From the sequence record MZ501069: a stretch of 51,777 nt of DNA; one strand, written 5' to 3'. Of the stretch, positions 6,693 through 26,785 are shown one piece after another. The notes below the pieces were generated by a model. That model was not told the DNA's origin. It saw only the letters and a program-made list of their open reading frames with translations, and searched no databases. A program made the translations under genes and the position numbers. The stretch comes from Escherichia phage FritzSarasin. Within the stretch, counting starts at the first letter, position 1; each line of letters begins with the position of its first letter.

Positions 6693-6717
6693 CTAATAGC
6701 ATAAAAAAACATTGCAC

Positions 6718-6736
6718 GTTTAACAAAAAGTGCTAT
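6718..6736 (-). promoter_or_regulatory. conserved motif copy, reverse orientation, upstream of capsid gene
   Basis: GTTTAACAAAAAGTGCTAT; pairs with partial AATAGCATAAAAAAAC at 6695-6710 as an inverted repeat. Confidence 0.45.
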
Positions 6737-6742
6737 CATCTA

Positions 6743-6769
6743 GGCCGTTACATTTAACGGCCTTTTTTA
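6743..6769 (+). terminator. rho-independent terminator-like hairpin
   Basis: GGCCGTTA-CATT-TAACGGCC followed by TTTTTTAT. Confidence 0.6.
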
Positions 6770-6782
6770 TGGAGGAAACAAA

Positions 6783-7754
6783 ATGGCTAAAAAATATGAT
6801 GAACTAGATGCTACGATTGTAGCGAATCATTTGCAGATTCAGGGTGTTAAGACCGACGCTTCTGATATGGGTATTTGGACCGCTCAAGAGCTACACAAGA
6901 TCCGCTCTACCGCATACGAGAAAGAGTATCCGGCAGGTTCCGCGCTTCGCGTATTCCCTGTAACAAACGAGCTTTCTGATACTGACAAGACTTTCGAATA
7001 TCAGACTTTTGATAAGGTTGGCTACGCGAAAATTATCGCCGACTACACCGATGATCTGCCGACTGTGGACGCGTTGATGACTTCTGAGTTTGGCAAAGTG
7101 TTCCGCCTGGGTAACGCTTATCTGATCTCCATTGATGAGATTAAAGCAGGTCAGCGAACTGGCAAGAGCCTGTCAACTCGCAAGGCTAACGCTGCGCAAA
7201 ATGCGCATGATCAGTTGATTAACTTCCTGGTGTTCAAAGGTTCCAAGCCTCATAAGATCGTTTCCGTTTTCGATCATCCTAACCTTACGAAAATTGCATC
7301 CAAAGGCTGGATGAGCAATGACGGCAATACCAAGTTCCCGCAGGTAGCAAGCGATGAACTGGAGGCCGCAATCGAAACGATCGAGGAAGTAACCAAAGGT
7401 CAGCACCGCGCGACCAATATCCTGATCCCGCCGTCCATGCGCAAAGTCCTGACGGTTCGAATGGAAAATACCACTGAAAGTTATCTGGAATACTTCCAGA
7501 AGCAAAACGGCGGTATCACTATCGACTCTATCGCAGAGCTTGAGGATATTGACGGCAAAGGTACGAAAGGTTGCTTGGTTTACGAAAAAGATCCAATGAA
7601 CATGAGCATTGAGATTCCAGAAGCGTTTAACATGCTTCCGGCGCAGCCAAAAGACCTACATTTCAAGGTTCCTTGCACTTCCAAGTGTACTGGCCTTACG
7701 ATTTATCGTCCGTTTACGATGGTGCTCATTACCGGCTTGAAAAAAGCTGAGTAA
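6783..7754 (+). CDS. major capsid protein
   Basis: 323 aa; strong RBS GGAGG; position and size typical of a siphovirus major capsid protein. Confidence 0.6.
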   Translation: MAKKYDELDATIVANHLQIQGVKTDASDMGIWTAQELHKIRSTAYEKEYPAGSALRVFPVTNELSDTDKTFEYQTFDKVGYAKIIADYTDDLPTVDALMTSEFGKVFRLGNAYLISIDEIKAGQRTGKSLSTRKANAAQNAHDQLINFLVFKGSKPHKIVSVFDHPNLTKIASKGWMSNDGNTKFPQVASDELEAAIETIEEVTKGQHRATNILIPPSMRKVLTVRMENTTESYLEYFQKQNGGITIDSIAELEDIDGKGTKGCLVYEKDPMNMSIEIPEAFNMLPAQPKDLHFKVPCTSKCTGLTIYRPFTMVLITGLKKAE

Positions 7755-7765
7755 TTAGATAACAT

Positions 7766-7794
7766 GGGGAGCCTTAAGGGTTCCCCTTTTTTTT
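7766..7794 (+). terminator. rho-independent terminator
   Basis: GGGGAGCCTTAAGGGTTCCCC followed by TTTTTTTT. Confidence 0.65.
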
Positions 7795-7812
7795 ATTTAT
7801 GGAGTGCATAAA

Positions 7813-8079
7813 ATGAGCAAAAATTTAAAACTTAAAGTAACTGGCGTTTGCATGATTATTATTGACGGTAAGCGTTATCATCCTGGTGATGAAATTGAAA
7901 TTGAATCTGAACGCATTAATGATTCCGCAATTGAATACCTGATCGCTCGCGGTGATGTGGAAGTTAAAGACAATTCCGAAATTAACGAGCAAATCAAGGC
8001 GAAAGCGGAGAAGAAGCGCAAAAAAGATCCTACCGAGGGCAAGAGCCGCAAAGAGCTAGAGGACGGCGGCGAATATTAA
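7813..8079 (+). CDS. hypothetical protein (head region)
   Basis: ATG 7813 with GGAG 8 nt upstream; 88 aa; K/E-rich C-terminus. Confidence 0.5.
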
Positions 8080-8125
8080 TAATTGGGGCGCTTATGCGCC
8101 CTTTGTCACATCTGGAGAAAACAAA

Positions 8126-8545
8126 ATGGTAGATGAATTTTACACAGACGCTGAAATCATGCAGCAAATCGTAAAGTTAGCGCCGCCAATGCAACAAGTT
8201 GATCCCGATTTAATTGTGGCATGGATTGAGCTTGCTAAAGAGTTTGTTTGCAAAAAGCGGTTTAAAAACTCATACCCGAAAGCGGTTGCGCTTTACACTC
8301 TTCACCTTATGACCTTAGACGGGGCAATGAAACAGGATGGTGAAAGCGTAGAAAGCTATTCCCGCCGCGTCGCCTCGTTCACTCTGACTGGTGAGTTTAG
8401 TCAGACGTTTGATCGAATCTCTTCCGATACAAGCGGAAAGCAGATCCGACAAACGCCGTGGGGCAAAATGTACGAAGTGTTAAACCGTAAGCACGGTGGC
8501 GGTTTTGGCCTTGTAACTGGATTGCGCCGGAGATGTTGCCGATGA
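8126..8545 (+). CDS. putative head-tail connector protein
   Basis: 139 aa with RBS; position between capsid and tail genes. Confidence 0.4.
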
Positions 8546-8913
8546 ACTACAATGAGATTGCAAGAATGGCTACGGCTGGGATTAACTTTTTCAGCGACGC
8601 TAACGGTATGTTTAAGTGCATCACGCAGCAGGGTGGAGTTGAGATTATCGGCGGAGAGGAAGTTACCAAGCCGGAGATTTCAGTGATGATAAAGGGGCTT
8701 GTTAGATCCCCTAGAACTAGAGAGGTTGACGGTGAAACAATCCGAGTAACCGACAAGTTGGGGATATTCACCAATGAAACTGAGATCAAAAATGGTTATC
8801 AGATTGAAATTGATGGCGAACGTTATGTTGTCGTTGAAGCAAGACCAGTCAGGCAGACTAACATCACGGCGGCTTATCGTCCGATATTAAGGAGGATTGC
8901 TGTGCATGGCTGA
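8533..8913 (+). CDS. putative head-tail adaptor protein
   Basis: 126 aa, overlaps previous gene; positional call. Confidence 0.4.
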
Positions 8914-9349
8914 TAACTATAAGATCAGGGAATTTCACGGTGATATAAGCAGGTGGATTGATTCAGTAAGCAGCGGCCTTGTTGATTGCGTTGAAATGTT
9001 CGCGACAAACGTCCACGAGGATCTTGTAAATCGCTCGCCAGTTGATACGGGCCGATATAAAGCCAACTGGCAGATAACAGCAAACAAGCCGCCGCTATAT
9101 GCGCTCAACCAATACGATCGCGATGGTAGTAAAACCATTGCAGAAGGCAAGCGAGCAATATATGCAATCATGCGTGGCGGTGGCGCGGTGCGGTCAATCT
9201 ATTTTTCAAACATGCTCATTTACGCCAACGCGCTTGAATACGGTCATTCAAAACAAGCGCCGTCCGGCGTACTTGGAATCGTGGCGGTAAAGCTGCGATC
9301 TTATATGGCTAAGGCAATAAAGGATTCGAGGGCAAAAAATGCACTATGA
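8906..9349 (+). CDS. putative tail completion protein
   Basis: ATG 8906 preceded by AGGAGG 8891-8896; 147 aa; positional call. Confidence 0.4.
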   Translation: MADNYKIREFHGDISRWIDSVSSGLVDCVEMFATNVHEDLVNRSPVDTGRYKANWQITANKPPLYALNQYDRDGSKTIAEGKRAIYAIMRGGGAVRSIYFSNMLIYANALEYGHSKQAPSGVLGIVAVKLRSYMAKAIKDSRAKNAL

Positions 9350-9740
9350 TTTAATGTTGGCGGCAAGAAAGGCGCTGGCGGCTGAATATGAATCACGATT
9401 TAAGATAGCATATGAAAACGTTGATTTTGTGCCGCCTGGAGATGGTTCTATGTGGTTAAAATTTGACTACATGGAAGCAGACACGGATCGCATATCTCTT
9501 GATAGAAAATGTGTTTCTTATATCGGTTTGGTTCAGGTTGGAATTGTCATTCCTCCTGGCGGCGGCACTGATAAAGCGCGTTTGCTGGCTAAAGAGATTG
9601 CGAGATTTTTCTATGATGGTAGAATGATTGAAACTGGCTATATTAGCGAGGGGGCAAACGTCCACACATTACTAAAAAGTGAAACAGGTTGGTTATTGCC
9701 GATCCGTTTCAGTGTTAGGCTTGATACAAAGGAGGAATAA
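9339..9740 (+). CDS. putative tail terminator protein
   Basis: 133 aa immediately upstream of the major tail gene; positional call. Confidence 0.4.
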   Translation: MHYDLMLAARKALAAEYESRFKIAYENVDFVPPGDGSMWLKFDYMEADTDRISLDRKCVSYIGLVQVGIVIPPGGGTDKARLLAKEIARFFYDGRMIETGYISEGANVHTLLKSETGWLLPIRFSVRLDTKEE

Positions 9741-9742
9741 TC

Positions 9743-10405
9743 ATGCACTTGCCTAATGGTTCTCAAATTTTCATCGGCGTTAATATGGGTGAGCCTATTA
9801 GCGCTACTCAAATCAGCAATGCTGATGATCCTGTTTTTACGACTGCAAACACTCAAAGCATCAAAAAAGGCGCTTATGTTCTTATTGAAACATCTTCTTG
9901 GGGTAAACTTGTTAGTCGCGTGCTTCGAGTTAAGGAAGTTTCAGATAATGCAAGTGTTACTCTTGAAGGTGTTAGCACTAAAGATACAAACGTATTTCCA
10001 GAAGGAGAGAACACAGCAACTTTCCGAGAGGTGAAATCTTGGGTAGAGATTCCTTGCGTACAGGATCTTGCGCAGGACGGCGGCGAACAACAGTATTACA
10101 CTTATCAGTGTTTGGCTGATGACCAGGAGCAGCAGTTACCGACCTATAAGAGCGCCGTTTCTCTTACCTACACTTTCGCGCATGAATATGATAACCCGAT
10201 TTATCCGATCTTGCGCGAGGCTGAGGAATCCGGCGACGTAACCGCTTTGCGTATGTACGTTCCGAAAGCTAAAGAGATGCGTTGCTGGGCTGGCGTATTG
10301 TCATTTAATGACATTCCGCAAACCACTATGAACGAAATGGAAACTGTTTCCCTTTCCGTATCTCTGAAAGGTCGATTTACGTTCTTATCTTCCGACATCA
10401 ATTAA
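9743..10405 (+). CDS. putative major tail protein
   Basis: 220 aa; strong RBS AAGGAGG; immediately before the G/G-T chaperone pair and tape measure, as in lambda-like tails. Confidence 0.55.
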   Translation: MHLPNGSQIFIGVNMGEPISATQISNADDPVFTTANTQSIKKGAYVLIETSSWGKLVSRVLRVKEVSDNASVTLEGVSTKDTNVFPEGENTATFREVKSWVEIPCVQDLAQDGGEQQYYTYQCLADDQEQQLPTYKSAVSLTYTFAHEYDNPIYPILREAEESGDVTALRMYVPKAKEMRCWAGVLSFNDIPQTTMNEMETVSLSVSLKGRFTFLSSDIN

Positions 10406-10410
10406 AACAA

Positions 10411-10431
10411 GGGGCGTTGCGCCCCTTTTTT
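10411..10431 (+). terminator. rho-independent terminator
   Basis: GGGGCG-TTG-CGCCCC followed by TTTTTT. Confidence 0.65.
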
Positions 10432-10471
10432 CATTCCTGTAAAATCAATCTATCAAATAAATCAATTCCAC

Positions 10472-10490
10472 TTTTAACAAAAAGTGCTAT
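10472..10490 (-). promoter_or_regulatory. conserved motif copy, reverse orientation, abutting RBS of chaperone gene
   Basis: TTTTAACAAAAAGTGCTAT directly followed by AAGGAG and ATG 10505. Confidence 0.45.
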
Positions 10491-10504
10491 AAGGAGATCT
10501 TGAG

Positions 10505-10822
10505 ATGGCAAAGATGAAACTAACGTTAGGCCCACTGCCTGATTTTAAGCTACCTGTTTCTTTTGTGCTTCCAAATGGTGATGAGCAAGTTATTGTTTTT
10601 ACCGTGCGCCACAAGAAGGCAAGCGAGATTCACGAACGATACACGGCAGAAAAGCCGATGAGCGACGTAGAAATGATCACCTTCCTTGCTTCCGGTTGGG
10701 ATCTGGAAGATGAATTTAACGAGGAAAACGTTGCTAAATTGCTGGATTATTACCCTTCTGCGTCATTATCGCTGACTGGTCATTATATGAAAGCACTTGC
10801 GGGGCAGCGGGTAAAAAACTAA
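10505..10822 (+). CDS. tail assembly chaperone (lambda G-like)
   Basis: 105 aa immediately upstream of tape measure; ends just after a slippery heptamer. Confidence 0.7.
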   Translation: MAKMKLTLGPLPDFKLPVSFVLPNGDEQVIVFTVRHKKASEIHERYTAEKPMSDVEMITFLASGWDLEDEFNEENVAKLLDYYPSASLSLTGHYMKALAGQRVKN

Positions 10823-11139
10823 AGCGGGCGGTTTACCTGTTTTACCTCAAGCCGCCAACTGACGCACAATTAGAGGCCGTCGGCCTATCCCGTTCAGACT
10901 ACGAAGGGGAGGAGCCGCCGGAGGTAATTTTTGATGAATCAATGTTTCAATCTTGGGATCTGTTTTGCGCTATGCAGACGCAATGGAGATCGACTAGCGG
11001 CAGTGTGTATGGGTTCGACTATAACGTTTTGCCTATGCTTTTTGACATTTACAAGATTGAGGATCGGGAGATGGCGCTAAATGATTTGCGCATCATGGAA
11101 CAAAAGGCGCTAGAAATGATTCATTCAAACAAAACATAA
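10505..11139 (+). CDS. tail assembly chaperone G-T fusion (via -1 frameshift)
   Basis: G frame to 10819, then -1 frame to stop at 11139; about 212 aa fusion; same arrangement as lambda G/GT. Confidence 0.55.
10813..10819 (+). other. programmed -1 ribosomal frameshift site (A AAA AAC)
   Basis: Heptamer A_AAA_AAC in the G frame, 3 nt before the G stop; the -1 frame is open with no stop from 10819 to 11139. Confidence 0.6.
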
Positions 11140-11159
11140 GCGCCGCAAGGCGCTTTTTT
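11139..11159 (+). terminator. terminator-like hairpin
   Basis: AGCGCCGCAAGGCGCT followed by TTTTTT. Confidence 0.5.
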
Positions 11160-11178
11160 AATATCTGGAGGTTTTAAA

Positions 11179-13860
11179 ATGGCTGAGAAATACGCTGGCC
11201 TAACGCTAGGCGTTGACGTGTCGCAGGTCAACAATGCTGTTAAATCATTGCAGCAATTCAAGAAGGCAAACGACGACGCAAAAAAAAGCGTTAATGAATT
11301 TGTTGATTCTGAGGTTGTGGCGCGACAGCAAGCTAAACAGTTTGCCGAAGAACTGGCGCGCCAGAAAGCAGAGTTTAAGAAAATCCAGGAGTCAATTGAT
11401 CCCACAGCGTCAAAGATGGATAAGCTGCGAAAAGCAGCGACACAGCTTGATGCGCTATGGAAAAAAGGCGTTGTTCCTGATGAGACTTTTTTTGAGCTTG
11501 GGGCAATTCTTGAGACACAGCAAAACAAGCTGATCGCAACCAAAAAGGCGATGACAGAGGAAGGCCGCGCGGCGCTTGAGGAATCAAAGAACAAGGCGCG
11601 TGCAGCGGAAGAGGCTAAAAAATTCATCCAGGCTTTGCGTGAGCAGGAAGAAGCAGCCGGAAAAAGCAAGTCTGAATTGCTGGAAATGAAAGCGGCACAG
11701 CTTGGAGTTAGCCAGGAGGCGGCGCCTTACATCGCAAGACTGAAAGAGCAGGAAAAGCAGATTCAAAAACTTGGGATTTCTACAGGCCAATACAATCAAG
11801 CAATGAAGCTATTGCCAATGCAGATCACAGACGTGGTGACTTCACTTGCTTCTGGTATGCCTGTTTGGCTGGTCGCAATCCAGCAGGGCGGACAGATTAA
11901 GGATTCTTTTGGTGGCGCATCCAATGCTTTAAAAGCGTTGCTATCTTTCCTGAATCCGGTAAACGTGGCTTTTGGCTTGCTTTCCGGCACGCTGGCAATT
12001 GCTGCATATAATGCCTACAAAACACAGACAGAGTTTGAGGCAATTAAAAAAACCGTTCAGGAAACAACTGGCTTGACTGGTGATTTTGCCGAAAAGATTG
12101 CTACAGGAATCCAGGAGCTTTCCGACAAGACGGGAGAAAGCGCAGAAGATCTGGCAAAGGCTTACATCACCACGAAAGACGGCGCGAGCGAGGCGATTAA
12201 AAAACTGGTTGACGTTGGCATGACTTATGATGATGCAAAAAAGAAAGTCAACGAGTACAAAGGCGCGTCTAGCTTTGTCAGCTTGAATAACGAAATTGCA
12301 AACCACAAAAACAAAGTCCTTGAGTTGGGCGACTCGTGGTATGAAGTTTTGAAAGCGAAGCGTGATTACGCTTCCCCGTCCGGCGGCCTGTTAGGTAAAG
12401 AGCTTGGCTATGTTAATCCTATGCTTAAGTTTGCACTTAACACTTATGAAGACATTGGAAAGGTCGTAAAAGATGCGAATAAGGACATGGCTGAACGAGC
12501 GGAGCGAATCGACAAAGAAAACCTTGCATTGAACAGAGTGAGAGCAGCGCAGGAGGCTTTAAACAAAGCCATTGAGGATCAGAAGGGTGTGGCGCGTTCG
12601 GCTGATGAAGAACTGAAAAAGCGTGCGGCTGAAAACGTGGAGTTCAGACGCAAAGAGCTTGAGGAGATCAAGAAGCAGGAGCAGAAAAAGAAAGAGGCTA
12701 AAGGCGGAATAGTTCGCGGACCAACTGAGCAGCTTGATAAAGAGTTGTACGTTTTAAAAGCGCAACTGGAAACGCTTAAAGAGCATCGCACTGTTAACGA
12801 TGTTATTTCTCGCCAGCGTAAATCTTTATGGAGCATCGAAAAGCAGATCGAGATCCTAGAGGATGCGCAGAGCAAGCGTAAATTGACCGGAGCGGAACAG
12901 GCGCTACTAAACGAGCAAAAAGCCGTTTTGGAAATGGCAAGGCAAAAGGCTGAATTAGGGGATCAGATTGTTTTGCAGGAGCGCAAAAACAAGCTGGAGC
13001 AAGATAGCATTAAGTTTATCCGTGAAACGCAGGCGGCTATTGATGTGCTTGGCCTTAAGCAACTTGGCTACACTGAAAAGCAGATCGAGCGTGAGCTAGA
13101 GTTACGCAAGCTGCGCACCGACTACGAGGCGCAAGGAGGAAGCGTTAGCGATGAAGTTTTTCAGCAAATGGGGGCGAAACTTAAGCAGTATTATCAGACA
13201 CAGGATGAGGTTCAAGGCAACTGGTTGGCAGGAGCAAAAAACGCATGGGAGCTATTCGCGGAAGATGCAAACAATGCCTATGGCAATGTTCAGCAGATCG
13301 CAAGCGAGGCGTTAAACGGCCTTACAAACCAATTAGCGAATTTTATCGCTACTGGCAAGGCAAACTTTAAAGACTTCTCGACGGCTATCATCAAAATGAT
13401 TATTCAGATGATCACGAAAATGGTTGTCTTTAATGCGTTATCTGGCCTGATGGGTGGTCAAACCTGGACGATGGGGAGCTTGCTTAAGAACATTGGCGGA
13501 TTTGCTGGCGGTGGATACACTGGCGACGGCGGGAAGTATGAGCCAGCCGGAATTGTCCATAAAGGTGAATTTGTCATGACGAAGGAGGCGACGCAGCGTA
13601 TCGGGGTAGGCAACTTGTACCGCATGATGCGAGGCTATGCTAACGGCGGCGTTGTTGGTAGTTCCGGCTATACTGGCGGTGGCGCTGTCACTGGTGGAGC
13701 ACCTCAATTTAACATTGGTGGGATTGATGTTAGCATCAATAACGGCAGCGATCCGAAGGGCATCGAAACTGGCGTTAAGATGATCTTTACTGATATGATT
13801 AAACGTTCCTGTATGCAGGGCGGAGAGGTTTACGAATTTGTTATGAGCAAGCGAGGTTGA
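11179..13860 (+). CDS. tail tape measure protein
   Basis: 893 aa; long coiled-coil-rich region, hydrophobic segments, glycine-rich C-terminus; position after G/G-T. Confidence 0.9.
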   Translation: MAEKYAGLTLGVDVSQVNNAVKSLQQFKKANDDAKKSVNEFVDSEVVARQQAKQFAEELARQKAEFKKIQESIDPTASKMDKLRKAATQLDALWKKGVVPDETFFELGAILETQQNKLIATKKAMTEEGRAALEESKNKARAAEEAKKFIQALREQEEAAGKSKSELLEMKAAQLGVSQEAAPYIARLKEQEKQIQKLGISTGQYNQAMKLLPMQITDVVTSLASGMPVWLVAIQQGGQIKDSFGGASNALKALLSFLNPVNVAFGLLSGTLAIAAYNAYKTQTEFEAIKKTVQETTGLTGDFAEKIATGIQELSDKTGESAEDLAKAYITTKDGASEAIKKLVDVGMTYDDAKKKVNEYKGASSFVSLNNEIANHKNKVLELGDSWYEVLKAKRDYASPSGGLLGKELGYVNPMLKFALNTYEDIGKVVKDANKDMAERAERIDKENLALNRVRAAQEALNKAIEDQKGVARSADEELKKRAAENVEFRRKELEEIKKQEQKKKEAKGGIVRGPTEQLDKELYVLKAQLETLKEHRTVNDVISRQRKSLWSIEKQIEILEDAQSKRKLTGAEQALLNEQKAVLEMARQKAELGDQIVLQERKNKLEQDSIKFIRETQAAIDVLGLKQLGYTEKQIERELELRKLRTDYEAQGGSVSDEVFQQMGAKLKQYYQTQDEVQGNWLAGAKNAWELFAEDANNAYGNVQQIASEALNGLTNQLANFIATGKANFKDFSTAIIKMIIQMITKMVVFNALSGLMGGQTWTMGSLLKNIGGFAGGGYTGDGGKYEPAGIVHKGEFVMTKEATQRIGVGNLYRMMRGYANGGVVGSSGYTGGGAVTGGAPQFNIGGIDVSINNGSDPKGIETGVKMIFTDMIKRSCMQGGEVYEFVMSKRG

Positions 13861-13862
13861 TA

Positions 13863-14213: not shown

Positions 14214-14217
14214 TTTA

Positions 14218-14242
14218 AAGCCGCCTTTGTGCGGCTTTTTTA
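14218..14242 (+). terminator. terminator-like hairpin
   Basis: AAAGCCGC-CTTTGT-GCGGCTTT followed by TTTTATT. Confidence 0.5.
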
Positions 14243-14275
14243 TTGATGTTACAATGAGCAAAAAGGAGGTAGAAA

Positions 14276-16348: not shown

Positions 16349-16354
16349 AAAAAT

Positions 16355-16377
16355 ACCCGCCTTGCGCGGGTTTTTTT
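16355..16377 (+). terminator. rho-independent terminator
   Basis: ACCCGCC-TTG-CGCGGGT followed by TTTTTTT. Confidence 0.6.
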
Positions 16378-16426
16378 GTGCCTTTATAATGTGCAAACCA
16401 AGAAACAGCACAAAAGGTTAAAAGTC

Positions 16427-19400
16427 ATGGCTAAATATATGATAAGCGGCAGTAAGGGAGGCGGTCAAAAGCCCTACGTGCCAAAAGAGATGGAAGATAA
16501 CCTGATCTCGATAAACAAGATTAAAGTTTTGCTGGCTGTATCTGATGGCGAGTGCGATCCAGATTTTACGTTGCGCGATCTTTATCTTGATGATGTTCCG
16601 GTTATTGCCAGCGATGGCACTGTTAACTACGAGGGAGTTACGGCTGAATATAGACCAGGTACGCAGACGCAAGATTACATCCAGGGTTTTACTGACACAT
16701 CAAGTGAGGTTACAGTTGCCAGAGATATTACCGGAGACAATCCTTATGTTATTTCTGTTACAAATAAAAACCTATCTGCGGTAAGAATAAAGATCCTGAT
16801 GCCAGTAGGCATTAAGCAGGAGGATAACGGCGATCTTGTTGGCGTAAGGGTTGAGTATGCCGTAGATATGGCTGTTGATGGCGGTTCTTATAGCGAGGTT
16901 ATGAGAGATGTAATTGACGGCAAGACAAGATCAGGATACGACCGCAGCAGAAGGATTGATCTTCCTAAGTTTGATGAGCGCGTTTTAATCAGGGTTAAGC
17001 GACTTACCCCAGACAGCACATCTTCAAAGGTGACTGATAAAATCAAACTGCAAAGTTACGCTGAGGTTGTGGATGCAAAATTCCGTTATCCTCTGACTGG
17101 CCTTGTATTTGTAGAATTTGACAGCGAATTGTTTCCTACACAAATCCCTAACATTTCTATAAAAAAGAAATGGAAGATTATTAATGTGCCAAGCAACTAT
17201 GATCCAATATCAAGAGAATATCACGGGTCATGGGATGGGACTTTTAAAAAAGCGTGGTCAAATAATCCTGCATGGGTTCTTTATGATCTGGTGACGAATC
17301 AGCGTTATGGACTTGACCAGCGAGAGTTAGGAATACAGATCGACAAGTGGAGCTTATACGAGGCAGGCGTTTACTGTGATCAGAAAGTTCCAGACGGCAA
17401 GGGCGGTACAGAGCCTCGCTACCTATGCGATGTGGTGATCCAGAATCAGGTTGAGGCTTATCAGCTAATCCGTGACATTTGCTCAATCTTTCGCGGAATG
17501 AGCTTTTGGAATGGAGAGAGCTTATCAATCGTAATTGATAAACCGCGCGATCCATCATACGTGTTTACTAATGAAAACGTCATCAACGGTGATTTTCAGT
17601 ACACAGCAGCAAGCGAAAAAAGCATGTACACGCAATGTAATGTGACGTTTGACGACGAACAAAACATGTATCAGCAGGACGTAGAGGGGGTTTTTGATAC
17701 TGAGGCGGCATTACGATTTGGATACAATCCAACAAGCATTACAGCGATCGGGTGTACACGCAGGAGCGAAGCGAATCGTCGCGGTCGGTGGGTTTTGAAA
17801 ACAAACCTTAGAAGCACTACTGTAAACTTTGCTACCGGACTAGAGGGGATGATTCCATCCATAGGTGATGTGATTGCTATCGCTGATAATTTTCAGAGCA
17901 GCAATATAACGTTAAATCTTTCGGGCCGAGTAATGGAAGTTTCAGGCTTGCAAGTTTTCGTTCCGTTTAAAGTTGATGCGCGCCCTGGTGATTTTATTAT
18001 CATCAATAAGCCGGACGGCAAGCCAGTTAAGCGAACGATCTCAAAGGTGAGCGCAGACGGAAAAACCATTGAGTTAAATATTGGCTTTGGTTTTGATGTT
18101 AAGCCTGATACTGTTTTTGCGATTGACCGTACTGACCTTGCGTTGCAGCAATACGTTGTGACAACTATCAGCAAGGGTGATGACGAAAACGAGTTTACCT
18201 TTTCAATCACGGCTGTGGAGTACGATCCGAACAAATACGACGAGATTGATTATGGCGTAAACATTGATGACAGGCCAACTTCAATTGTTCAGCCTGACGT
18301 GATGGCAGCGCCGGAGAATGTTCAGATCTCATCTTATTCTCGCGTCGTGCAGGGTGTTAGCGTTGAAACTATGGTTGTTTCATGGGATAAGGTTCCTTAC
18401 GCATCGCTTTATGAAATGCAGTGGCGAAAAGGTGATGGTAACTGGCTGAATACGCCGCAGACCGCTAACAAAGAGATAGAGGTAGAAGGAATTTATTCAG
18501 GCAACTACCAAGTAAGGGTTAGATCTGTTTCTGCAAGTGGGAACACCTCCCCGTGGTCAAAGATTGTAACCGCCACCCTGACAGGTAAAGTTGGCGAGCC
18601 AGGAGCGCCGATTAATCTTACAGCTTCTGATAATGAAGTTTTTGGCATTCGTGTCAAATGGGGTATGCCGGAAGGATCAGGAGATACGGCTTACATTGAG
18701 CTTCACCAATCGCCAGATGGAACGGTGGAAAACTCAAGTTTGCTTACGCTGATCCCGTATCCTCAATATGAGTATTGGCATAGTACGTTACCAGCGGGGA
18801 AAGTTGTATGGTATAGAATCCGTAGCGTTGACAGAATAGGAAACGTTTCCGGCTGGACTGACTTTGTTCGTGGCATGGCGTCAGATGATGTTGAATCTGT
18901 TTTAGGCGACATTCTGGACAAGATTTTTGATACCGAAGCTGGTCAAGAAATCAAAGAGAACGCCATAGACAGTGCCAACAAAATCAAAGACCAAGCGCAA
19001 TCAATCATCCAGAACGCTTTGGCAAATGATTCTGATGTTAGAGTTATGAGAAAGGAGAATGGGAAACGGAAAGCTGAATTTAGGCAATCTATACAGATGA
19101 TTGCTGATGAAACAGAGGCAAGGGTAACAGCGTTAACGCAATTAAAAGCAGAATTTGATGAGGAGATAACTAGCGAAGTAACAAGACTTGATCAGGCGAT
19201 CGCAACAGAATCAGAAACGCGAGCAACAGCTATAGAGGAATTAAAATCACAGATTGGTGATGATATACAGGGGCAGTTAACGAGAGTTGAGGAAGCGATT
19301 GCAAGCGAAACAGAGGCGCGCGTTTCTGCCGATACTGCATTAACGGCAAAGTTTGGTGATCTTGAGTCGGCACTTACTGAAAAACTTGATTCATGGGCTG

Positions 19401-19852: not shown

Positions 19853-19875
19853 AAAAAAGGGGGCGTAGCCCCCTT
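19853..19875. terminator. bidirectional terminator
   Basis: AAAAAAAA-GGGGGCGTAGCCCCC-TTTAATT between convergent genes. Confidence 0.6.
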
Positions 19876-19880
19876 TAATT

Positions 19881-20507
19881 TTAATCATAGTGTGATGCAT
19901 TTATAACCAAAACAGATGAAGCGGTGTAAATACCAACAGGTCCAGGGGTTTGTGCAACCTGCCTAGAAAAAGAGTAGATCCCGTTACCATACGCGGCAGC
20001 TTGAGACTCAAAAATCATAAATCCACCTAAAGCCGGATTAGGTACAGAGTTTAACGCTGTTAGTGATGGCATTATTGCGCAAGGGTAGCCCAGGTTAACA
20101 TCAAACGCGATCCCGCTCACACCAACTTGCTTTGCATCAAGCGGCCTCATTTTTCCATGATAAACCATTTCACCATGAGCGTTATAAAACGCTATGCCGT
20201 GACTACCTGGAGGAGTCACCATGTTACTAAAAGCATAAACAATAACCTCCCCTTGATTATCAGATCTATCAATTCTTATTGCGTGCCTTCCACCATTGTT
20301 AAATTGCGTAAATGATATGTATGATTTAGCAGTCAATCTAACAAAGAAAAAACATACCCTATCAACAGGAATTGACGAAGTAAAAACGGTTCCGGTATTA
20401 GCAGATATTACGGCCCGATCAATTAGATTAACTGGAGTGAAATCTGGACTTAACCATAACGATCCGTCTGGTTTTTTTATGCTCATCCCGTACATTATCA
20501 CCCCCAA
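19881..20507 (-). CDS. hypothetical protein (cor-like operon, distal gene)
   Basis: 208 aa; start overlaps stop of upstream ORF by 10 nt. Confidence 0.55.
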   Translation of the reverse strand: MGVIMYGMSIKKPDGSLWLSPDFTPVNLIDRAVISANTGTVFTSSIPVDRVCFFFVRLTAKSYISFTQFNNGGRHAIRIDRSDNQGEVIVYAFSNMVTPPGSHGIAFYNAHGEMVYHGKMRPLDAKQVGVSGIAFDVNLGYPCAIMPSLTALNSVPNPALGGFMIFESQAAAYGNGIYSFSRQVAQTPGPVGIYTASSVLVINASHYD

Positions 20508-20776
20508 AAAGTATATATATATCTTGAATCAGATCCAGAAAGTCCACTCCATGTAACGGTGTCGCCACTTACTCCTAAGCTTGGTGCGCCAGGGTCGCCA
20601 CCGCGCCAGGAATTCATGCCAACATATATTGCTTTCAATGATTTACCTGGCGGCCTGTTTTGGTAAGTCTTGCTACCTGATGGCTGAGTGAATTTATCAA
20701 GAAAGAAAACAGGCGTTAAAAGTCCTGTAACTTCCCTCCCTCGATCGTCATATATTGCATAACCATATTGCGCCAT
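20498..20776 (-). CDS. hypothetical protein (cor-like operon, middle gene)
   Basis: 92 aa; start overlaps lipoprotein stop by 1 nt (TAATG). Confidence 0.5.
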   Translation of the reverse strand: MAQYGYAIYDDRGREVTGLLTPVFFLDKFTQPSGSKTYQNRPPGKSLKAIYVGMNSWRGGDPGAPSLGVSGDTVTWSGLSGSDSRYIYTFWG

Positions 20777-21051
20777 TAATTACACCTCAAATCAATAAAT
20801 TTACTTTCATTTTGCCAGCGGTTGATAAATTTAACTTCTTTATTGTCAACGCTCAACCTGTATTGCTTTTGGCTGAATCTGTTTTCGCGGACTGCATTAA
20901 TTTTGACCTCATGGAATCCGTTAACAGGGAATGTTTTAACGTTAAATTTTGCCGTGCAATCGATCTCTTTGAAGCCGCCAGTAGGCGACGCTGCGCATCC
21001 GGTCAGAGCGGCTACGGTGGCGATAACTGCGATTAATTTTTTCATCTTCAA
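20776..21051 (-). CDS. small lipoprotein, Cor-like superinfection-exclusion candidate
   Basis: 91 aa; signal peptide with lipobox LTGC; Cor-like by size, lipoprotein character and proximity to tail genes; homology not verified. Confidence 0.5.
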   Translation of the reverse strand: MKMKKLIAVIATVAALTGCAASPTGGFKEIDCTAKFNVKTFPVNGFHEVKINAVRENRFSQKQYRLSVDNKEVKFINRWQNESKFIDLRCN

Positions 21052-21100
21052 TACTCCTTAGTTGTCGTTGCCTGTAACTATACACGATCCGACAAGCGGC

Positions 21101-21120
21101 GTTTAGCAAAAAGTGCTACT
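21101..21120 (-). promoter_or_regulatory. conserved promoter-module motif, variant copy (leftward)
   Basis: Minus-strand reading AGTAGCACTTTTTGCTAAAC, about 21 nt, then TATAGT; lipoprotein ATG about 70 nt downstream. Confidence 0.5.
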
Positions 21121-21488
21121 TGTTATTTTTTGTTTTTCGGTGTTATCGAATTTAAGACGGCGTAAATTTAGCTCAAATTTTAGCCAACATGAGAGCGATA
21201 AACAATCAATAAAATAGATATATACATATAAAATCAATAGTTTATTTATTTATGTATGTATATTTGTTTTTTCTTGTTATCTGTGTTTCTTGTGGTTTTG
21301 GTTGTTTGTGGTGATTTTTCTTTCTGAGTATCTGTATGTGCCATCATTCATGTGTATGTATATAATCCGGCGTATCTGAGAGAACAAGGGAACAAGAAAA
21401 ATAACACATATTAATCATTGACTTACATTTCAAATTTGTTTTCTTGCAATCTAAGAACGTTTAGAAAACAGAAAAAACAAAACAACTA

Positions 21489-21516
21489 TTGACTAAATCA
21501 ACCAAATGGCTACAAT
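21489..21516 (+). promoter_or_regulatory. sigma70-type promoter (TTGACT-N16-TACAAT)
   Basis: Near-consensus -35 and -10 about 30 nt upstream of exonuclease ATG. Confidence 0.55.
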
Positions 21517-21546
21517 GCACACACAAAGCAACAAGGAGCATCAAAG

Positions 21547-22602
21547 ATGAGTGATTTTAACGCCTACACTAGCGAAGAAATGAGCAATGAGCTTTATCAT
21601 GATCCTAACGCGTGGACGGCTGAATACGTCAGCGGTTCCAGCTTGGCGGAGATTTACAGCACTTGCCCGGCGTACTGGAAGTACAAGCCTCGCCAGGAAA
21701 CTAAGGCACTTGTTTTCGGTACGCAGTCGCATACCAATTTTGAAAGCAATGAGTTATTCGAAAAAACATATCGCCGCGCACCGTCGCAGGATGATTTTAA
21801 AGATCTGATCACAAGTCAAACGGCGTTAGCCTCAAAGCTGAAATCTTTTGGCCTGAAAGGTACAACGGGTAAGCAATACCCAGAATTGCTGGAAATGCTG
21901 TACAAGTGCGGTGAGGATCTCAATGTATGGTGGCTTATCGAAATGATGGCAGAATGCCAGGCCGCAGCGGACGGCGTGCAGTTAATCGACGCGAAAGATT
22001 ATGATGCCTGTGTAGCGATGCGGCGCGTACTTGAGGCAATACCTGAGCATAATGCTTGCATGAATAGCCCAACCGCGCAGCGTGAAATGTCAATATTCGG
22101 GATCATCAATGGCGTAAAAGTTAAAGTGCGCCTTGATCACGTTGACGTAAACAAGGATGTAAAGGCCACAATCATTAACGGTTACGACGAAAAAGGCCGA
22201 CCGATTTATGAAGAAGTCATCTATCCAGAAGCTGTGATTATCACTGACTATAAAACAACGGTTAGCGCAAATCCGGTTGACTTCCAGCGCCTGGCTTACA
22301 ATCACGGCTATTATCTCAAAATGGCTTTGCAGCATGATTTATTTAAAAAGGCGTATCCAGACGAGGAAAGGCCAGTAATTGTGAGATTGCTTGCTCAAGA
22401 GAAGAAAGAGCCTTACTTGCCGCTCGCATTCCGCATGAACATTGAGCAATTGAAGATCGGGCGTATCCAGTACATGAGCGTGATCAACAAGTTCAACGTT
22501 TGCCAACAGTTAGATGAATGGCCTTCGTATGCAAACGGGCAGCCAGAAATTGATCTTGATACTCCTGATTGGGTGCGCGCTCAATTCAGGCAGTATCTAT
22601 GA
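21547..22602 (+). CDS. putative recombination exonuclease (PD-(D/E)XK type)
   Basis: 351 aa; block VIITDYKTT resembles the D...(D/E)xK nuclease core; first gene of an exo-Erf-SSB module. Confidence 0.5.
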   Translation: MSDFNAYTSEEMSNELYHDPNAWTAEYVSGSSLAEIYSTCPAYWKYKPRQETKALVFGTQSHTNFESNELFEKTYRRAPSQDDFKDLITSQTALASKLKSFGLKGTTGKQYPELLEMLYKCGEDLNVWWLIEMMAECQAAADGVQLIDAKDYDACVAMRRVLEAIPEHNACMNSPTAQREMSIFGIINGVKVKVRLDHVDVNKDVKATIINGYDEKGRPIYEEVIYPEAVIITDYKTTVSANPVDFQRLAYNHGYYLKMALQHDLFKKAYPDEERPVIVRLLAQEKKEPYLPLAFRMNIEQLKIGRIQYMSVINKFNVCQQLDEWPSYANGQPEIDLDTPDWVRAQFRQYL

Positions 22603-22677
22603 CAAACTAAACAAATAGCTAAACTTTTATAATGGTTGGTGATATAATTCGCCAACCAGATAACGGGAGAATGAGAG

Positions 22678-22935
22678 ATGACAGATAAAGACAATGCCAC
22701 ATTATTGCATTTAGAGCGATTCATTGATCGAGTAACCATTGCAATGAAAGAATTTATTAAGCCGATGAACATTAAAGAGTCGGAAGAAATGAAGACTTAC
22801 ATCAAGGACGTGGTTGCATCCATTGACAACGTTATCCTTGTTGCAACGATGAGCAAGGGAAACAAAGAGCGCGAGAGGTTGGTTGCTGAATCAACAGAAG
22901 AATTTATTAAAATGCTTGAAAGCGAGAAGGAATAA
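22678..22935 (+). CDS. hypothetical protein
   Basis: 85 aa with RBS GGGAGAATGAGAG upstream; between exonuclease and Erf. Confidence 0.5.
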   Translation: MTDKDNATLLHLERFIDRVTIAMKEFIKPMNIKESEEMKTYIKDVVASIDNVILVATMSKGNKERERLVAESTEEFIKMLESEKE

Positions 22936-23592
<657 letters not shown>

Positions 23593-23635
23593 TAAACGGG
23601 GCGCTTGCGCCCCTTTTGTCATAGGAGAAAACAAA

Positions 23636-24082
23636 ATGCACGTTATTACAGGTGAGATCCGAAAAGAGCCAAAAGTAAAGCAAATGCCTAACGGTAGCAC
23701 GCTATATGTTGTTGAGCTTTCCGAACGATATAAAGACCGTGAAGGCAATTGGCAGTATACAAACTATGTATTTTTCTTTAACGCGAAAACAGACGGCCTG
23801 AATGGTTGGTATGCTGAGGCGTTCCAGGTAGGCAAGGTTATTTCTGTTTCCTGCGATACCTTGCGAGTTGAAACGCGAGAATACAACGGAAAGATTTACA
23901 GCACCGTGCAGCCTGGCGGATTTGCAAACTTGCTATTTAGCCAGCGTGGGGAAAGCCAGCAACAATATCAGCAGCGCACTCAAGGTGGATGGGGGCAACC
24001 ACAACAGCAACAAATCCCTCAACAGCAACCACAGCAAAGCAATCAGCCGCCGATTGACTTTGATGACGATATACCTTTCTGA
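23636..24082 (+). CDS. ssb: single-stranded DNA-binding protein
   Basis: 148 aa; OB-fold-like N-terminus, Q/G/P-rich linker, acidic tail ending DFDDDIPF. Confidence 0.85.
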   Translation: MHVITGEIRKEPKVKQMPNGSTLYVVELSERYKDREGNWQYTNYVFFFNAKTDGLNGWYAEAFQVGKVISVSCDTLRVETREYNGKIYSTVQPGGFANLLFSQRGESQQQYQQRTQGGWGQPQQQQIPQQQPQQSNQPPIDFDDDIPF

Positions 24083-24083
24083 T

Positions 24084-24113
24084 AAAAAGCCCCGCACATG
24101 CGGGGCTTTTTTT
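24084..24113. terminator. bidirectional terminator
   Basis: AAAAA-GCCCCGCACATGCGGGGC-TTTTTTT between convergent SSB and tail-fibre genes. Confidence 0.65.
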
Positions 24114-26721
24114 AGTCTGTATCTGTTGGATTGTTGATTAATTTCGCTACCGCTTTTCTTAGATCATCTATCTCTTTCTCCATTTTCTCAATTTTCCCCC
24201 CCATGTAGACCATAGCGCAAGCCATATCTGTTAGCATAACATTGCTATCTAGCGCCAATGTGTCATCATTTCTGTCAGTTTCAATCTGACGATCAATGTA
24301 TTCCTCACCATTTTCATCAACTCCAATCACATCCTCAAATACCGGCGAGCCTGGAACTAGCTTTACATATTGTGGATCGATTTTTAACAGATCTTGAGCT
24401 ATCAGGCCAAAACGTTGAACATCAGATCCGTTATATTTAAACATAGCAGGCAACCATTGCATTACGCGATCGTAGCTTTCCTTTCCGTCTGTGTATTTAA
24501 TGTCGTGTTTCAAATCACGATCGGACGTTGGGTTTTTTGCGAAAATAAAAGCACCTCCGCCGAAACCTTGCTCCCATGTAGTAATGTCACCAGCATATGT
24601 AAAATGATAAGCACGATGAAAACGACCATCACCATTTAACTTTAGCGCTACATCAGGCCACGCGGCATTTCCGTTTGATACAACACCAAGCCCAACTCGC
24701 ATATGATAACCGCCAGTTGATAAAGAGCCACCAGAAACAACAGGACTCCAACCAGAGTCATTGTTTGTAACTGAGTTTGCGTAGTATGGCGCCCCCATGT
24801 GATCCCATTCAAGACCCCATGCGCCTTGTACACACTGACCATTAAAACCACGCTGCGCAGTCATGTATCCACCGTAATCATTGTGGAATCTAAACTCTTT
24901 GACGTCAGATCCTTGATTATTAACCAATACTTTTACATGGGCTATATCAGTAGAGCCGCCTCTTACAGCGCCAAATTGCCAGAATCCACCGTACCAGTTG
25001 CCTTGTAGCAAGTTTACCCATCCATAAGCTCCACCATCTCCTGATGCGTTTGTCAGGTAAATATCTTTATCACCTCCTTCGGCAGTTCCGCAGCCAACTC
25101 GCATTGCCTGTTTTGCAGTAATCCACCCGTTAGAGTAAAGCCCACCAGTTCCATTGATTTCAACATGATGTAGACCTGATAACTTTGAGTTTTCATCAAA
25201 TTGCAGGTATCCGTGCTTGTCTCCTTCATTGTTTGCTGTATGTATTGTTGTTTTCCATAATCCGCCTTGCTTTTCAGCGTATACCCGAGAATAACCCCGA
25301 GAAACACCATCATCACCCTTTGCGTGTAAATTCAAGATTCCACTAAGCTCAGCAGCTCCAGCATATTGATGAACAAGATCTAGATCGGAAAATCTTGGTG
25401 TTTGTCTCTCACCCAATCCAAGACCATCCCTAAACAAAAGAATATCGCGGATAACATAATCATTAATCGCATAGAATCCTGTGTTAGTTAAAACCATTGC
25501 CCTTACTTCTGTACATTCAGCGGCAGGATCTGTCGCACCAAACTTAAAAACTGTTGCGTTTTCAACAAAACCATCTGGCGCATAATCTGATGTTGGGACA
25601 ACAACATCAATATTGCTTTCACAGTGAATGCTAACAGGAAATGCGCCGCCTCGAATGTAAACTGCAAACGCCTTTTGTGTTGCTTTCGCTGGCATCAAAA
25701 TAGAATCAATAGTTCTTTCATCTTTCTGATAGATGGTGAAATTACCATAAACGCTATCAACGCCGTCAGACCATCCAGAAGTACGAGCATAGCCAGCAAA
25801 TGACGCTGAATTATAAGGATAATCACCAGTCCTATTACTAGTTGAGATCTGGAAGAAAACGCCTAATTGACTCATATCACCAACGTTCTTTTCTTGGAAG
25901 ATCACAGGGTAATATTTTGCATCTTCCGCACCCGCTGGAGCGTTTACAGTTCTTTCGTATTTCCAGCCCTGATAACCTACAACTGCTTGATGCGCTCTAT
26001 CAGCTTCCATTTCGGCGCGGTTTGCTTGCTGCAATGCGTTGGCTGAATGGTTAGCAGCCTGATCTCGCGCACTTTCTGCGCCTGTTTTAGCCTCAATCGC
26101 CTGATCTTTTAGCGACGATGTATCGCTTTTAATCTGATTCATTTCAACAACAGCTTGATCTTTAGTCTGGTTTACAGTCAGCACACCCTGATCTCGCGCC
26201 GAGTTAATTTCCGCTACCGCTGAATCTTTGATCTGTTGCGTTTGTTGCATGTAGCCTTTTGCTGATTCAGCATGATTAAAAGATTGACCAGCCCATGTTT
26301 GCGCGTTTTGTTCGCTTTGTGCTGCTGATGCCGCATTTCTCACTGTTTCATCACGTAAGTCAATCAGCTTTTGCAGATCAAAGTTCCTGAAAAATTCAAT
26401 TGCTTCCTCTATCTGCGTTTCCTTGCTTTGATAGTAGCGCAGCGTTTCAGCTACATCTTGCGCCAGACCGTCAACAGTGATCGAGTCATGCAGTAAAATG
26501 ATGTAATTGCTTCGCGCAATTTCAGATCCGCCAGTTGTGATGGCGCGGATTTGCGTATCACTAATAACCTCACTGATTACCGCCGCCTGAAAAGGGGCGT
26601 CAATAAAAAATATTGTCGCACCTGGGCGAATCAAGGTTAATTGCTCACGCCATTTTGTGTCGTAACCAGTTACATAACCTTGCGCGTCCATAGACGCTTG
26701 GCCTTGTCTGTAAATTGCCAT
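24112..26721 (-). CDS. tail fibre protein with C-terminal intramolecular chaperone (S74-like) domain
   Basis: 869 aa from ATG at 26721 (AGGAGG RBS); C-terminal block DLKHDIKYTD...RFGLIAQDL...LINNPTDTD resembles self-cleaving chaperone domains. Confidence 0.8.
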   Translation of the reverse strand: MAIYRQGQASMDAQGYVTGYDTKWREQLTLIRPGATIFFIDAPFQAAVISEVISDTQIRAITTGGSEIARSNYIILLHDSITVDGLAQDVAETLRYYQSKETQIEEAIEFFRNFDLQKLIDLRDETVRNAASAAQSEQNAQTWAGQSFNHAESAKGYMQQTQQIKDSAVAEINSARDQGVLTVNQTKDQAVVEMNQIKSDTSSLKDQAIEAKTGAESARDQAANHSANALQQANRAEMEADRAHQAVVGYQGWKYERTVNAPAGAEDAKYYPVIFQEKNVGDMSQLGVFFQISTSNRTGDYPYNSASFAGYARTSGWSDGVDSVYGNFTIYQKDERTIDSILMPAKATQKAFAVYIRGGAFPVSIHCESNIDVVVPTSDYAPDGFVENATVFKFGATDPAAECTEVRAMVLTNTGFYAINDYVIRDILLFRDGLGLGERQTPRFSDLDLVHQYAGAAELSGILNLHAKGDDGVSRGYSRVYAEKQGGLWKTTIHTANNEGDKHGYLQFDENSKLSGLHHVEINGTGGLYSNGWITAKQAMRVGCGTAEGGDKDIYLTNASGDGGAYGWVNLLQGNWYGGFWQFGAVRGGSTDIAHVKVLVNNQGSDVKEFRFHNDYGGYMTAQRGFNGQCVQGAWGLEWDHMGAPYYANSVTNNDSGWSPVVSGGSLSTGGYHMRVGLGVVSNGNAAWPDVALKLNGDGRFHRAYHFTYAGDITTWEQGFGGGAFIFAKNPTSDRDLKHDIKYTDGKESYDRVMQWLPAMFKYNGSDVQRFGLIAQDLLKIDPQYVKLVPGSPVFEDVIGVDENGEEYIDRQIETDRNDDTLALDSNVMLTDMACAMVYMGGKIEKMEKEIDDLRKAVAKLINNPTDTD

Positions 26722-26737
26722 TTGTAAAATCCTCCTA

Positions 26738-26755
26738 AATAGCACTTTTTGCTAA
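26738..26755 (+). promoter_or_regulatory. conserved motif copy abutting RBS of tail-fibre gene (reverse relative to gene)
   Basis: AATAGCACTTTTTGCTAA on the plus strand; on the minus strand it sits directly 5' of AGGAGG and the tail-fibre ATG. Confidence 0.45.
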
Positions 26756-26785
26756 TGACAATGCAGATAATAGCATTTTCAAATG

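Follow-up and report, generated by a model that had tools for sequence, protein, structure and literature searches.

The stretch of DNA analyzed here (51,777 nucleotides (nt) of Escherichia phage FritzSarasin, sequence record MZ501069; hereafter the window) comes from a T1-like coliphage of the family Drexlerviridae. Its first 25 kb aligned over the full length, at 98% identity, with Escherichia phage tonnikala (Drexlerviridae, Tempevirinae, Warwickvirus), and its gene order is the same as that of T1, TLS and Rtp. The terminase, portal, head and tail genes lie on the plus strand up to approximately 20 kb and are followed by a recombination module; the genes for the tail fibre, the primase and a 'transcriptional regulator' lie on the minus strand (24112-28288), followed by the replication genes and many small early genes. 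A short motif recurs in the intergenic regions of this genome, and three of its copies stand in reverse orientation upstream of structural genes, namely those encoding the capsid protein, the tail chaperone G and the tail fibre. We found that each of these copies overlaps or closely follows a conserved, predicted forward promoter of the sigma-70 type, an arrangement consistent with operator-like sites. The entire analysis was performed in silico, and the motif family, its fixed geometry and the conserved forward promoters described below are properties of the sequences compared.

The geometry of the motif was examined in 8 genomes (the window, T1, TLS, Rtp, two Veterinaerplatzvirus, one Webervirus and phage A120), which cover four subfamilies plus Webervirus. 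For the capsid site, 80 IMG/VR loci with capsid homologues (54-99% identity) were combined with the window to give 81 sequences; for the G site, the upstream regions of 78 IMG/VR loci encoding chaperone G plus the window gave 79 sequences; and for the tail-fibre site, 67 distinct upstream regions were compared. Promoters were called by a strict consensus scan with scores out of 12.

Read in the direction of the adjacent structural gene, the motif is exact (TTAACAAAAAGTGCTAT) at 6720-6736 and 10474-10490, both on the plus strand, and differs by one change (TTAGCAAAAAGTGCTAT; TTAGCA...) at 26739-26755 on the minus strand. The three reversed copies reported in the first-pass annotation are real, with coordinates that had been drawn 1-2 nt too wide, and the Shine-Dalgarno (SD) sequence does follow immediately in two of them, at G and at the tail fibre (Table 1). 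The partial second copies that had been placed nearby did not survive inspection. That at 6695 (AATAGCATAAAAAAAC, 6696-6711) consists of the stop-codon flank and the A-tract upstream of the capsid -35 element, and its ATAGCAT is not conserved in relatives; that at 26771 (AATAGCATTTTC, 26769-26780) is the extended -10 element of the fibre promoter (TGCTATTAT, 26775-26767) read on the opposite strand. Allowing up to 3 mismatches, we counted 20 matches across the window where shuffled sequences would yield 0.32, and the set is therefore far beyond chance; a looser pattern, in which the variable middle was left free, gave 22 copies. Each genome of the related set (T1, TLS, Rtp, the two Veterinaerplatzvirus, Webervirus and A120) contained 17-23 copies.

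The repeat itself has been published. The phage TLS genome, re-annotated in 2024, was described as carrying 21 copies of a direct repeat of 21 nt, aaATAGCACnnnTTGnTAAAA, 18 of them intergenic (PMC11447400). These repeats were said to lie 'in the direction of transcription', approximately 76 nt before start codons, and to be present also in T1, Rtp and Rogue1; stoperators, enhancer sites and UP elements were suggested, and the function was listed as an open question (PMC11447400). The motif of the window belongs to the same sequence family and is likewise intergenic and present in many copies. Its canonical copies keep the TLS-type orientation and the distance of approximately 76 nt, whereas the three reversed copies, and a copy at 28300 with respect to the regulator gene, point the opposite way, at a distance of 14-46 nt from the start codon. 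One reversed copy, DR7, located just before the terminator upstream of the capsid gene, is listed in the supplementary table for TLS (PMC11447400) and is the counterpart of the window copy at 6720. The TLS paper describes neither a dyad core, nor a fixed 21-nt distance to a -10 element, nor reversed copies that overlap forward promoters of late genes (PMC11447400). The reading of the core as a dyad, its placement at -42 and the location of copies within conserved late promoters appear to be new. A literature search on the motif sequence returned only an unrelated actin preprint.

Most copies share one layout. Read as ATAGCAC..., an upstream stop codon is followed by the motif, a 21-nt spacer, a -10-like hexamer, a leader, a ribosome-binding site (RBS) and the next gene. 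Among the 8 genomes, [T/C]AnnnT was found exactly 21 nt 3' of the motif at 117 of 164 sites, compared with a 3% background. At these 117 canonical sites, the first half-site reads TAGCA in 105 and the second reads TGCTA in 48 and TGTTA in 45 (together 93/117), so that the core of the motif is an inverted repeat, TAGCA-N5-TG(C/T)TA. Because the core is palindromic, the motif can be given an 'orientation' only from its weaker half-site, its central 5 nt and its flanks. A G occupies -14 at 91/117 sites, and the normal -35 position matches TTGACA at a mean of only 1.45 of 6 bases. Counted from the -10 element, the dyad centre of the canonical copies (approximately 17 in the window) falls at -42. 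Class II activators, for example CRP (-41.5) and lambda CI (OR2, for PRM), occupy this very position, and the canonical copies share the features of such sites: a dyad near -41.5, a weak or absent -35 element and a good -10 element. The fixed distance of 21 nt suggests activation through a stereospecific contact with polymerase. The approximately 17 canonical copies of the window are predicted early or middle promoters, with a -10 but no -35 element and the geometry of class II activator sites.

Two further features of the canonical promoters were observed. A semi-conserved leader, CATCGAAACGAAAC, common to several subfamilies, lies between the predicted start and the RBS, 20-35 nt downstream of the canonical -10 element (e.g. 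40820-40835 and 43575-43590). In addition, the 42 nt from the motif to approximately +15 fold far better than shuffled sequences in the 8 genomes (mean z -2.96; z < -2 at 84/117 sites), the hairpin lying wholly within the spacer at 52 sites and enclosing the -10 hexamer in its loop at 62; examples in the window are 40141, 40868, 46472 and 49652, and 30789, 31860, 43523 and 48358. Such a hairpin may end or stabilize the upstream transcript while new transcripts start inside its 3' arm.

At the capsid gene, the reversed copy was anchored upstream of the gene in 76 of 81 sequences, corresponding to 59 distinct sequences. All 59 keep a TTGnnn -35 element (TTGACG, TTGCAC, TTGACC, TTGAAC and others), a 16-nt spacer, TG at -15/-14, a TATnnT -10 element and an A-rich tract upstream (6703-6709 in the window); in the window these elements form the predicted promoter P_MCP, with a predicted start near 6746. 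The orthologous promoter of T1 was called by the consensus scan (TTGACG-16-TATTAT, 10/12, with TG). The motif is built into this promoter: after 2 nt, the remaining 14 nt of the 16-nt spacer are the start of the reversed motif, whose end supplies the first three bases of the -10 element. The spacer is as conserved as the motif is elsewhere and follows its lineage-specific variants (e.g. TTAGCAATTCGTGCTAT in Webervirus); conservation beyond what sigma-70 needs suggests that the capsid spacer is under selection as a putative binding site. On the antisense strand, a TAnnnT hexamer at the canonical 21 nt was found in only 1 of the 59 distinct sequences, and the capsid copy is therefore not an antisense promoter. 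The GGAGG of the capsid gene (6771-6775) is parted from the motif by a terminator-like hairpin whose place is conserved in Tempevirinae and T1-like relatives.

A separate observation concerns the same intergenic region. In many relatives, homology to the window begins exactly there (query position approximately 497 of 6200-7200), which indicates that the gene upstream of the capsid promoter (5910-6692) is a swapped cassette and that the promoter region is a recombination boundary.

At the tail fibre gene, a forward -10 element just after the primase terminator was present in 65 of 67 distinct relatives and was TG-extended in 57 (TGCTATTAT, TGnTAAAAT or TGCTATAAT). The scan made no promoter call at this site in the window, and called the T1 orthologue of the predicted promoter, P_stf, as TTGCAA-17-TAAAAT (9/12, with TG). 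The reversed motif was found in 23 of the 67 distinct regions, beginning 6 or 11 nt after the forward -10 element (14 nt in one), i.e. at approximately +1 or +6; in T1 it spans approximately +1 to +17. None of the 23 carried an antisense TAnnnT at 21 nt from the copy.

Upstream of chaperone G, the reversed motif was found in 30 of 79 sequences (27 distinct). A forward promoter recurs in relatives with or without the motif, as TTGCGC, TTGCGT, TTGCTC or TTCACA followed by N16/17 and TA(A/G/T)AAT or TAATAT, with its -35 element set within the loop and 3' arm of the major-tail terminator and its -10 element (TAAAAT, TAGAAT, TAATAT or TATAAT) after the T-run of that terminator. On the antisense strand, all 27 distinct sequences carry TAnnnT exactly 21 nt from the motif; nine different hexamers occur, and the spacer varies in sequence but not in length. 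The G site thus carries a complete predicted promoter of the canonical motif type, facing away from the gene. Its -10 element is 1 nt from that of the predicted forward promoter P_G, so both polymerases would need the same melted DNA, and the two predicted starts diverge (approximately 10440 leftward and 10452 rightward). The leftward RNA would be approximately 40 nt in length and would end in the reverse face of the terminator. The distance from the motif to the GGAG of gene G ranges from 2 to 13 nt in relatives, and adjacency to the SD is not conserved.

A fourth copy, at 28300, lies between the helicase gene and the divergent regulator gene. Its centre corresponds to -42 of the helicase promoter (-10 element TATTAT at 28338-28343), and the -10 element of the regulator promoter overlaps that of the helicase promoter on the opposite strand; this layout was found in 60 of 60 distinct relatives. 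The regulator is assigned to PHROG 2856, 'transcriptional regulator' (1.6e-72), and its residues 55-90 gave sub-threshold Pfam matches to YdaS and P22_Cro; against PDB, it matched the Cro-family structures 5w8y (E = 6e-4) and 3bd1 (E = 7e-3). The gene was found in all 8 genomes examined, and a search for homologues of the regulator returned only contigs of 47-53 kb, which is the size of Drexlerviridae genomes. This helix-turn-helix (HTH) protein is the likely candidate for the motif-binding factor; a Cro-like dimer would fit a 15-bp dyad, and its canonical sigma-70 promoter fits an immediate-early role. The coordinates of all of these features are collected in Table 1.

As for the rest of the protein, the C-terminal part (residues approximately 100-130) is conserved and contains three cysteines (GCKG...FCRPD...RC), the last invariant in seven aligned homologues, and the N-terminus contains a basic stretch, DKRTINGNNGTRRGKDKK; neither matches a Pfam family. 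These parts may form a metal-binding or polymerase-contact module.

Table 1. Motif copies, predicted promoters and neighbouring features in the window
Feature	Coordinates	Strand	Remarks
Forward motif copy before portal gene	2093..2109	+	Overlaps a late promoter-like site; TATAAT 2117-2122 only 7 nt away; motif at -36 to -20; terminator-like hairpin 2124-2145 follows
Predicted capsid promoter P_MCP	6712..6739	+	-35 TTGCAC 6712-6717, 16-nt spacer, TG 6731-6732, -10 TATCAT 6734-6739
Reversed motif copy 1 (capsid)	6720..6736	-	Reads ATAGCACTTTTTGTTAA on - strand; exact 17/17; at -26 to -10 of P_MCP
Terminator-like hairpin and T-run	6742..6763	+	22 nt, between P_MCP and capsid RBS; predicted P_MCP start in 5' arm
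Bidirectional intrinsic terminator after major tail gene	10409..10427	both	Terminator-like on each strand; P_G -35 in loop and 3' arm
Predicted promoter P_G	10417..10445	+	-35 TTGCGC 10417-10422, 17-nt spacer, -10 TAAAAT 10440-10445; start near 10452
Antisense -10 TAGATT	10447..10452	-	Spaced exactly 21 nt from copy 2; antisense start predicted near 10440
Reversed motif copy 2 (G)	10474..10490	-	About +23 to +39 of P_G; centre -42 of predicted antisense promoter; abuts SD AAGGAG 10491-10496
Predicted promoter P_J	16362..16390	+	TTGCGC 16362-16367, N17, TATAAT 16385-16390
Degenerate forward copy ACAGCACAAAAGGTTAA	16405..16421	+	Leader of predicted P_J; ends 5 nt before gene J ATG 16427
Reversed motif copy 3 (tail fibre)	26739..26755	+ (gene on -)	About +6 to +22 of P_stf; then SD AGGAGG 26736-26731, ATG 26721
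Extended -10 TGCTATTAT of predicted P_stf	26767..26775	-	Predicted start near 26760
Primase intrinsic terminator	26795..26812	-	Immediately upstream of P_stf
Cro-like HTH protein gene, 158 amino acids	27812..28288	-	Homologue of T1 gp23, Rtp52, TLS gp57
Fourth motif copy	28300..28316	+	Centre -42 of helicase promoter; +17 to +33 in leader of divergent regulator gene, against its RBS
Regulator sigma-70 promoter	28339..28367	-	TTTAAA-17-TATAAT; 10/12 in consensus scan; equivalent to P57 of TLS

Four promoters of the sigma-70 type in the window, those of the regulator, capsid, G and tail-fibre genes, read into a copy of the motif. The first-pass annotation had assumed that no promoter at the reversed copies fires toward the structural gene; this premise falls, as each of the three sites has its own predicted forward promoter, conserved in 59/59 distinct capsid sequences and 65/67 fibre regions and recurrent at G. 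Of the three functions it had proposed, an operator agrees best with all three sites, an antisense promoter holds for G but not for the capsid or tail fibre, and an RNA element finds no support. From this sequence analysis, we put a probability of roughly 0.5 on the reading that the reversed copies are operator-like sites restraining the late-gene promoters, a second use of a site that elsewhere would activate from -42. Underlying it are our inferences that a protein binds the motif, that the HTH protein is the binder and that its effect on the late promoters is negative.

The operator reading would work as follows. At the canonical copies, a dimeric activator at -42 would recruit host sigma-70 RNA polymerase to promoters lacking a -35 element. 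At the reversed copies, the bound protein, or a polymerase recruited in the opposite direction, would block the forward sigma-70 promoter of the late gene. The positions at two sites are those expected of operators, -26 to -10 at the capsid and +6 to +22 at the tail fibre: in the former the block would lie in the spacer and the extended -10 element (centre approximately -18), and in the latter at approximately +14 of the promoter. At G, the copy (+23 to +39) is outside the open-complex footprint and shares the melted region through the antisense promoter; here a block at approximately +31 could be joined by the back-facing promoter competing for the same melted DNA. The regulator promoter likewise reads through a motif copy, so that autorepression might be coupled to activation of the divergent helicase promoter.

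Late-gene copies in forward orientation bear on the same question. The arrangement before the portal gene is also present in phage A120; the degenerate copy before gene J has orthologues at 25021 in T1 and at 24908 in TLS (= DR8); and at terS of T1 a forward-oriented copy lies over the late promoter or leader. These copies indicate that, among the late genes, position relative to the forward promoter matters more than orientation. The canonical copies stand at a fixed position and in a fixed orientation with respect to their -10 element.

Several points weigh against the operator reading. A stable early repressor of late promoters would need to be relieved later in infection, and we identified no mechanism for such relief. 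The G copy is missing from 49/79 sequences and the tail-fibre copy from 44/67 distinct relatives, and copies so patchy would therefore be dispensable modulators at most. Even at the capsid, both half-sites have decayed in one Webervirus group in which the TG and TAT are retained, so the site is dispensable there. In the window, P_MCP (8/12 plus TG) and P_G (8/12) are below the threshold of the strict scan, which made no call at either; as the scan gave none at these sites, the case for the forward promoters is made by conservation in relatives and by the T1 orthologue calls. Moreover, the canonical promoters often carry TG or G at -14 and might need no activator, and the proposed link between the motif and the HTH protein derives only from gene context and fold class. 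Finally, a literature search for transcription start-site, RNA-seq, binding or expression studies returned none for any T1-like phage, one candidate preprint having used a T5-like phage.

An alternative is that host RNA polymerase reads the motif directly, as a UP-like or displaced -35-like element without a phage factor, and that the reversed copies are polymerase sinks in competition with the late promoters. The motif does hold TTGnTA followed by AAAA, a UP-element analogy was proposed by the TLS authors (PMC11447400), and competition would explain the G and regulator sites, both of which have a back-facing -10 element. However, TTGnTA lies 22 nt from the -10 element, too far for sigma region 4, and nothing in polymerase recognition corresponds to the dyad symmetry or to ATAGCAC, the best-conserved part. 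UP elements have two A/T-rich subsites (-57 to -47 and -46 to -38); the motif extends from -50 to -34, is conserved in the G/C-containing ATAGCAC, and has its A-run at -35 to -32, off the subsite positions. The capsid and tail-fibre copies moreover keep the full 17-mer without a back-facing -10 element. We consider direct reading unlikely.

It is also improbable, in our view, that the G and tail-fibre copies are functionless relics of promoter-plus-gene insertions (morons) that have lost their cargo. In its favour, their presence is patchy, the two sites come and go independently, in Braunvirinae the G intergenic region holds a forward copy driving an extra gene, rtp34, and in A120 a reversed copy drives a small open reading frame (ORF). 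Against it, the position of the copies is constant: the motif begins 6 or 11 nt after the fibre -10 element in 22/23 regions and stands exactly 21 nt from the antisense -10 element at G. Their orientation is constant as well, despite diverged flanks, across Tunavirinae, Tempevirinae and, for the fibre site, Braunvirinae. The capsid copy, for its part, is nearly universal.

That all three reversed copies are antisense promoters, with the resulting RNAs or convergent transcription regulating the adjacent structural genes, is quite doubtful. The full canonical promoter kept on the antisense strand at G (27/27) and the -10 element, RBS and antisense ORF at the A120 copy speak for such a role, whereas the near absence of the 21-nt hexamer at the capsid (1/59) and its absence at the tail fibre (0/23) speak against it; even at G, the predicted transcript diverges from the G mRNA without overlapping it and ends approximately 40 nt on in the bidirectional terminator. 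Least credible of all is an action of the copies in the mRNA leader, for example by RBS masking or protein binding on RNA. In its favour, two window copies abut the SD, and transcripts from P_G and P_stf would include them. Against it, transcription from P_MCP is predicted to start downstream of the capsid copy, as it is at the canonical copies, the motif-to-SD distance varies (2-13 nt) and relatives do not preserve the flanking pairings (CACTTTT/AAAAGTG and GCAC/GTGC). None of these alternatives accounts for more than one site without running counter to the conservation data.

Other assignments of the motif were tried and rejected. TAGCAC...TTGC resembles the sigma-54 pattern GGCAC-N5-TTGC, from which it differs in a spacing shorter by 2 nt, and it is followed by a sigma-70 -10 element at a fixed distance. 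TTGnTA is too distant from the -10 element (22 nt) to be a canonical -35 element. The possibility that all copies are promoters in reverse was dismissed because the early copies lack a TTG two nucleotides upstream and their TATTTA-type hexamers lack the final T, and pairing of the motif with its flanks into RNA hairpins was dismissed for want of conservation. To our knowledge, none of the consensus sequences of CRP, FNR, IHF, Fis and DnaA fits the motif.

Promoters of the late region are interlocked with terminators. The -35 elements of P_G (10417-10422) and P_J (16362-16367) lie inside the preceding terminator hairpin. For P_MCP and the portal promoter, transcription is predicted to begin within the 5' arm of a terminator-like hairpin (6742-6763 and 2124-2145, respectively), so that their transcripts would lack the full stem. 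Before the primase gene, a degenerate forward copy (ACAGCACGAATAGCTAA, 27828-27812, minus strand) is accompanied by a -10 element, TAATAT, located in the loop of the full intrinsic terminator that ends the regulator gene (GGCCCAGC...GCTGGGC-TTTTTT); here a promoter is nested in a terminator (27785-27828). In the 16557-16768 region of phage A120, the tape-measure gene is immediately preceded by a reversed copy that has an antisense -10 element (TATGAT), an RBS and an ORF of 58 amino acids, a small gene running backwards in the tail module.

Taken further, one Cro-like protein and approximately 20 copies of a single palindromic site might run the temporal programme of virulent T1-like phages: switching genes on from -42, restraining the capsid, tail-chaperone and fibre genes, with a decoy promoter at G yielding an RNA of approximately 40 nt, and possibly being relieved by titration as the genome replicates. 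We regard this scheme as tentative. T1-like phages are classic, common and troublesome contaminants of laboratories and industry, and the present results offer a testable model for the stated open question of the repeat, naming a candidate protein and the exact bases. The predicted late promoters of capsid, tail and fibre genes across the family should also be useful for annotation and phage engineering.

Phage regulators that activate and repress according to the position of their site are a kind of system already known. Mycobacteriophage L5 has stoperators, an analogy drawn by the TLS authors (PMC11447400), which resemble the present copies in being numerous and dispersed over short intergenic spaces and transcribed leaders. 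However, stoperators are asymmetric, orientation-dependent and purely repressive and belong to a temperate phage, whereas the motif described here has a palindromic core, late-gene copies in both orientations and most copies upstream of, and at a fixed activating distance from, a -10 element. In the MotA-box middle promoters of T4, as in the canonical copies, the sigma-70 -10 element is kept and the -35 element is replaced by a phage-specific box at a fixed distance; the MotA box, however, is centred at -30 and needs AsiA, whereas the dyad here is at -42, and no MotA or AsiA homologue was found among the annotations of the relatives examined. Lambda CI at OR2 (PRM/PR) and CRP at -41.5 provide further parallels, as a dimeric HTH site near -42 replaces or abuts one -35 element while blocking the opposite promoter; the 28300 pair and the G site share this geometry, as judged from sequence. 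Lambda CI differs in that the present phage is virulent and has approximately 20 dispersed single sites instead of a tripartite cooperative operator. Protein p4 of phi29 has few sites, acts via the C-terminal domain of the alpha subunit (alpha-CTD) from approximately -82, is unrelated in sequence and has the opposite polarity, turning late genes on and early genes off. What phi29 has in common with the operator reading is a virulent phage in which one small DNA-binding protein activates one class of promoters and represses another by the position of its sites.

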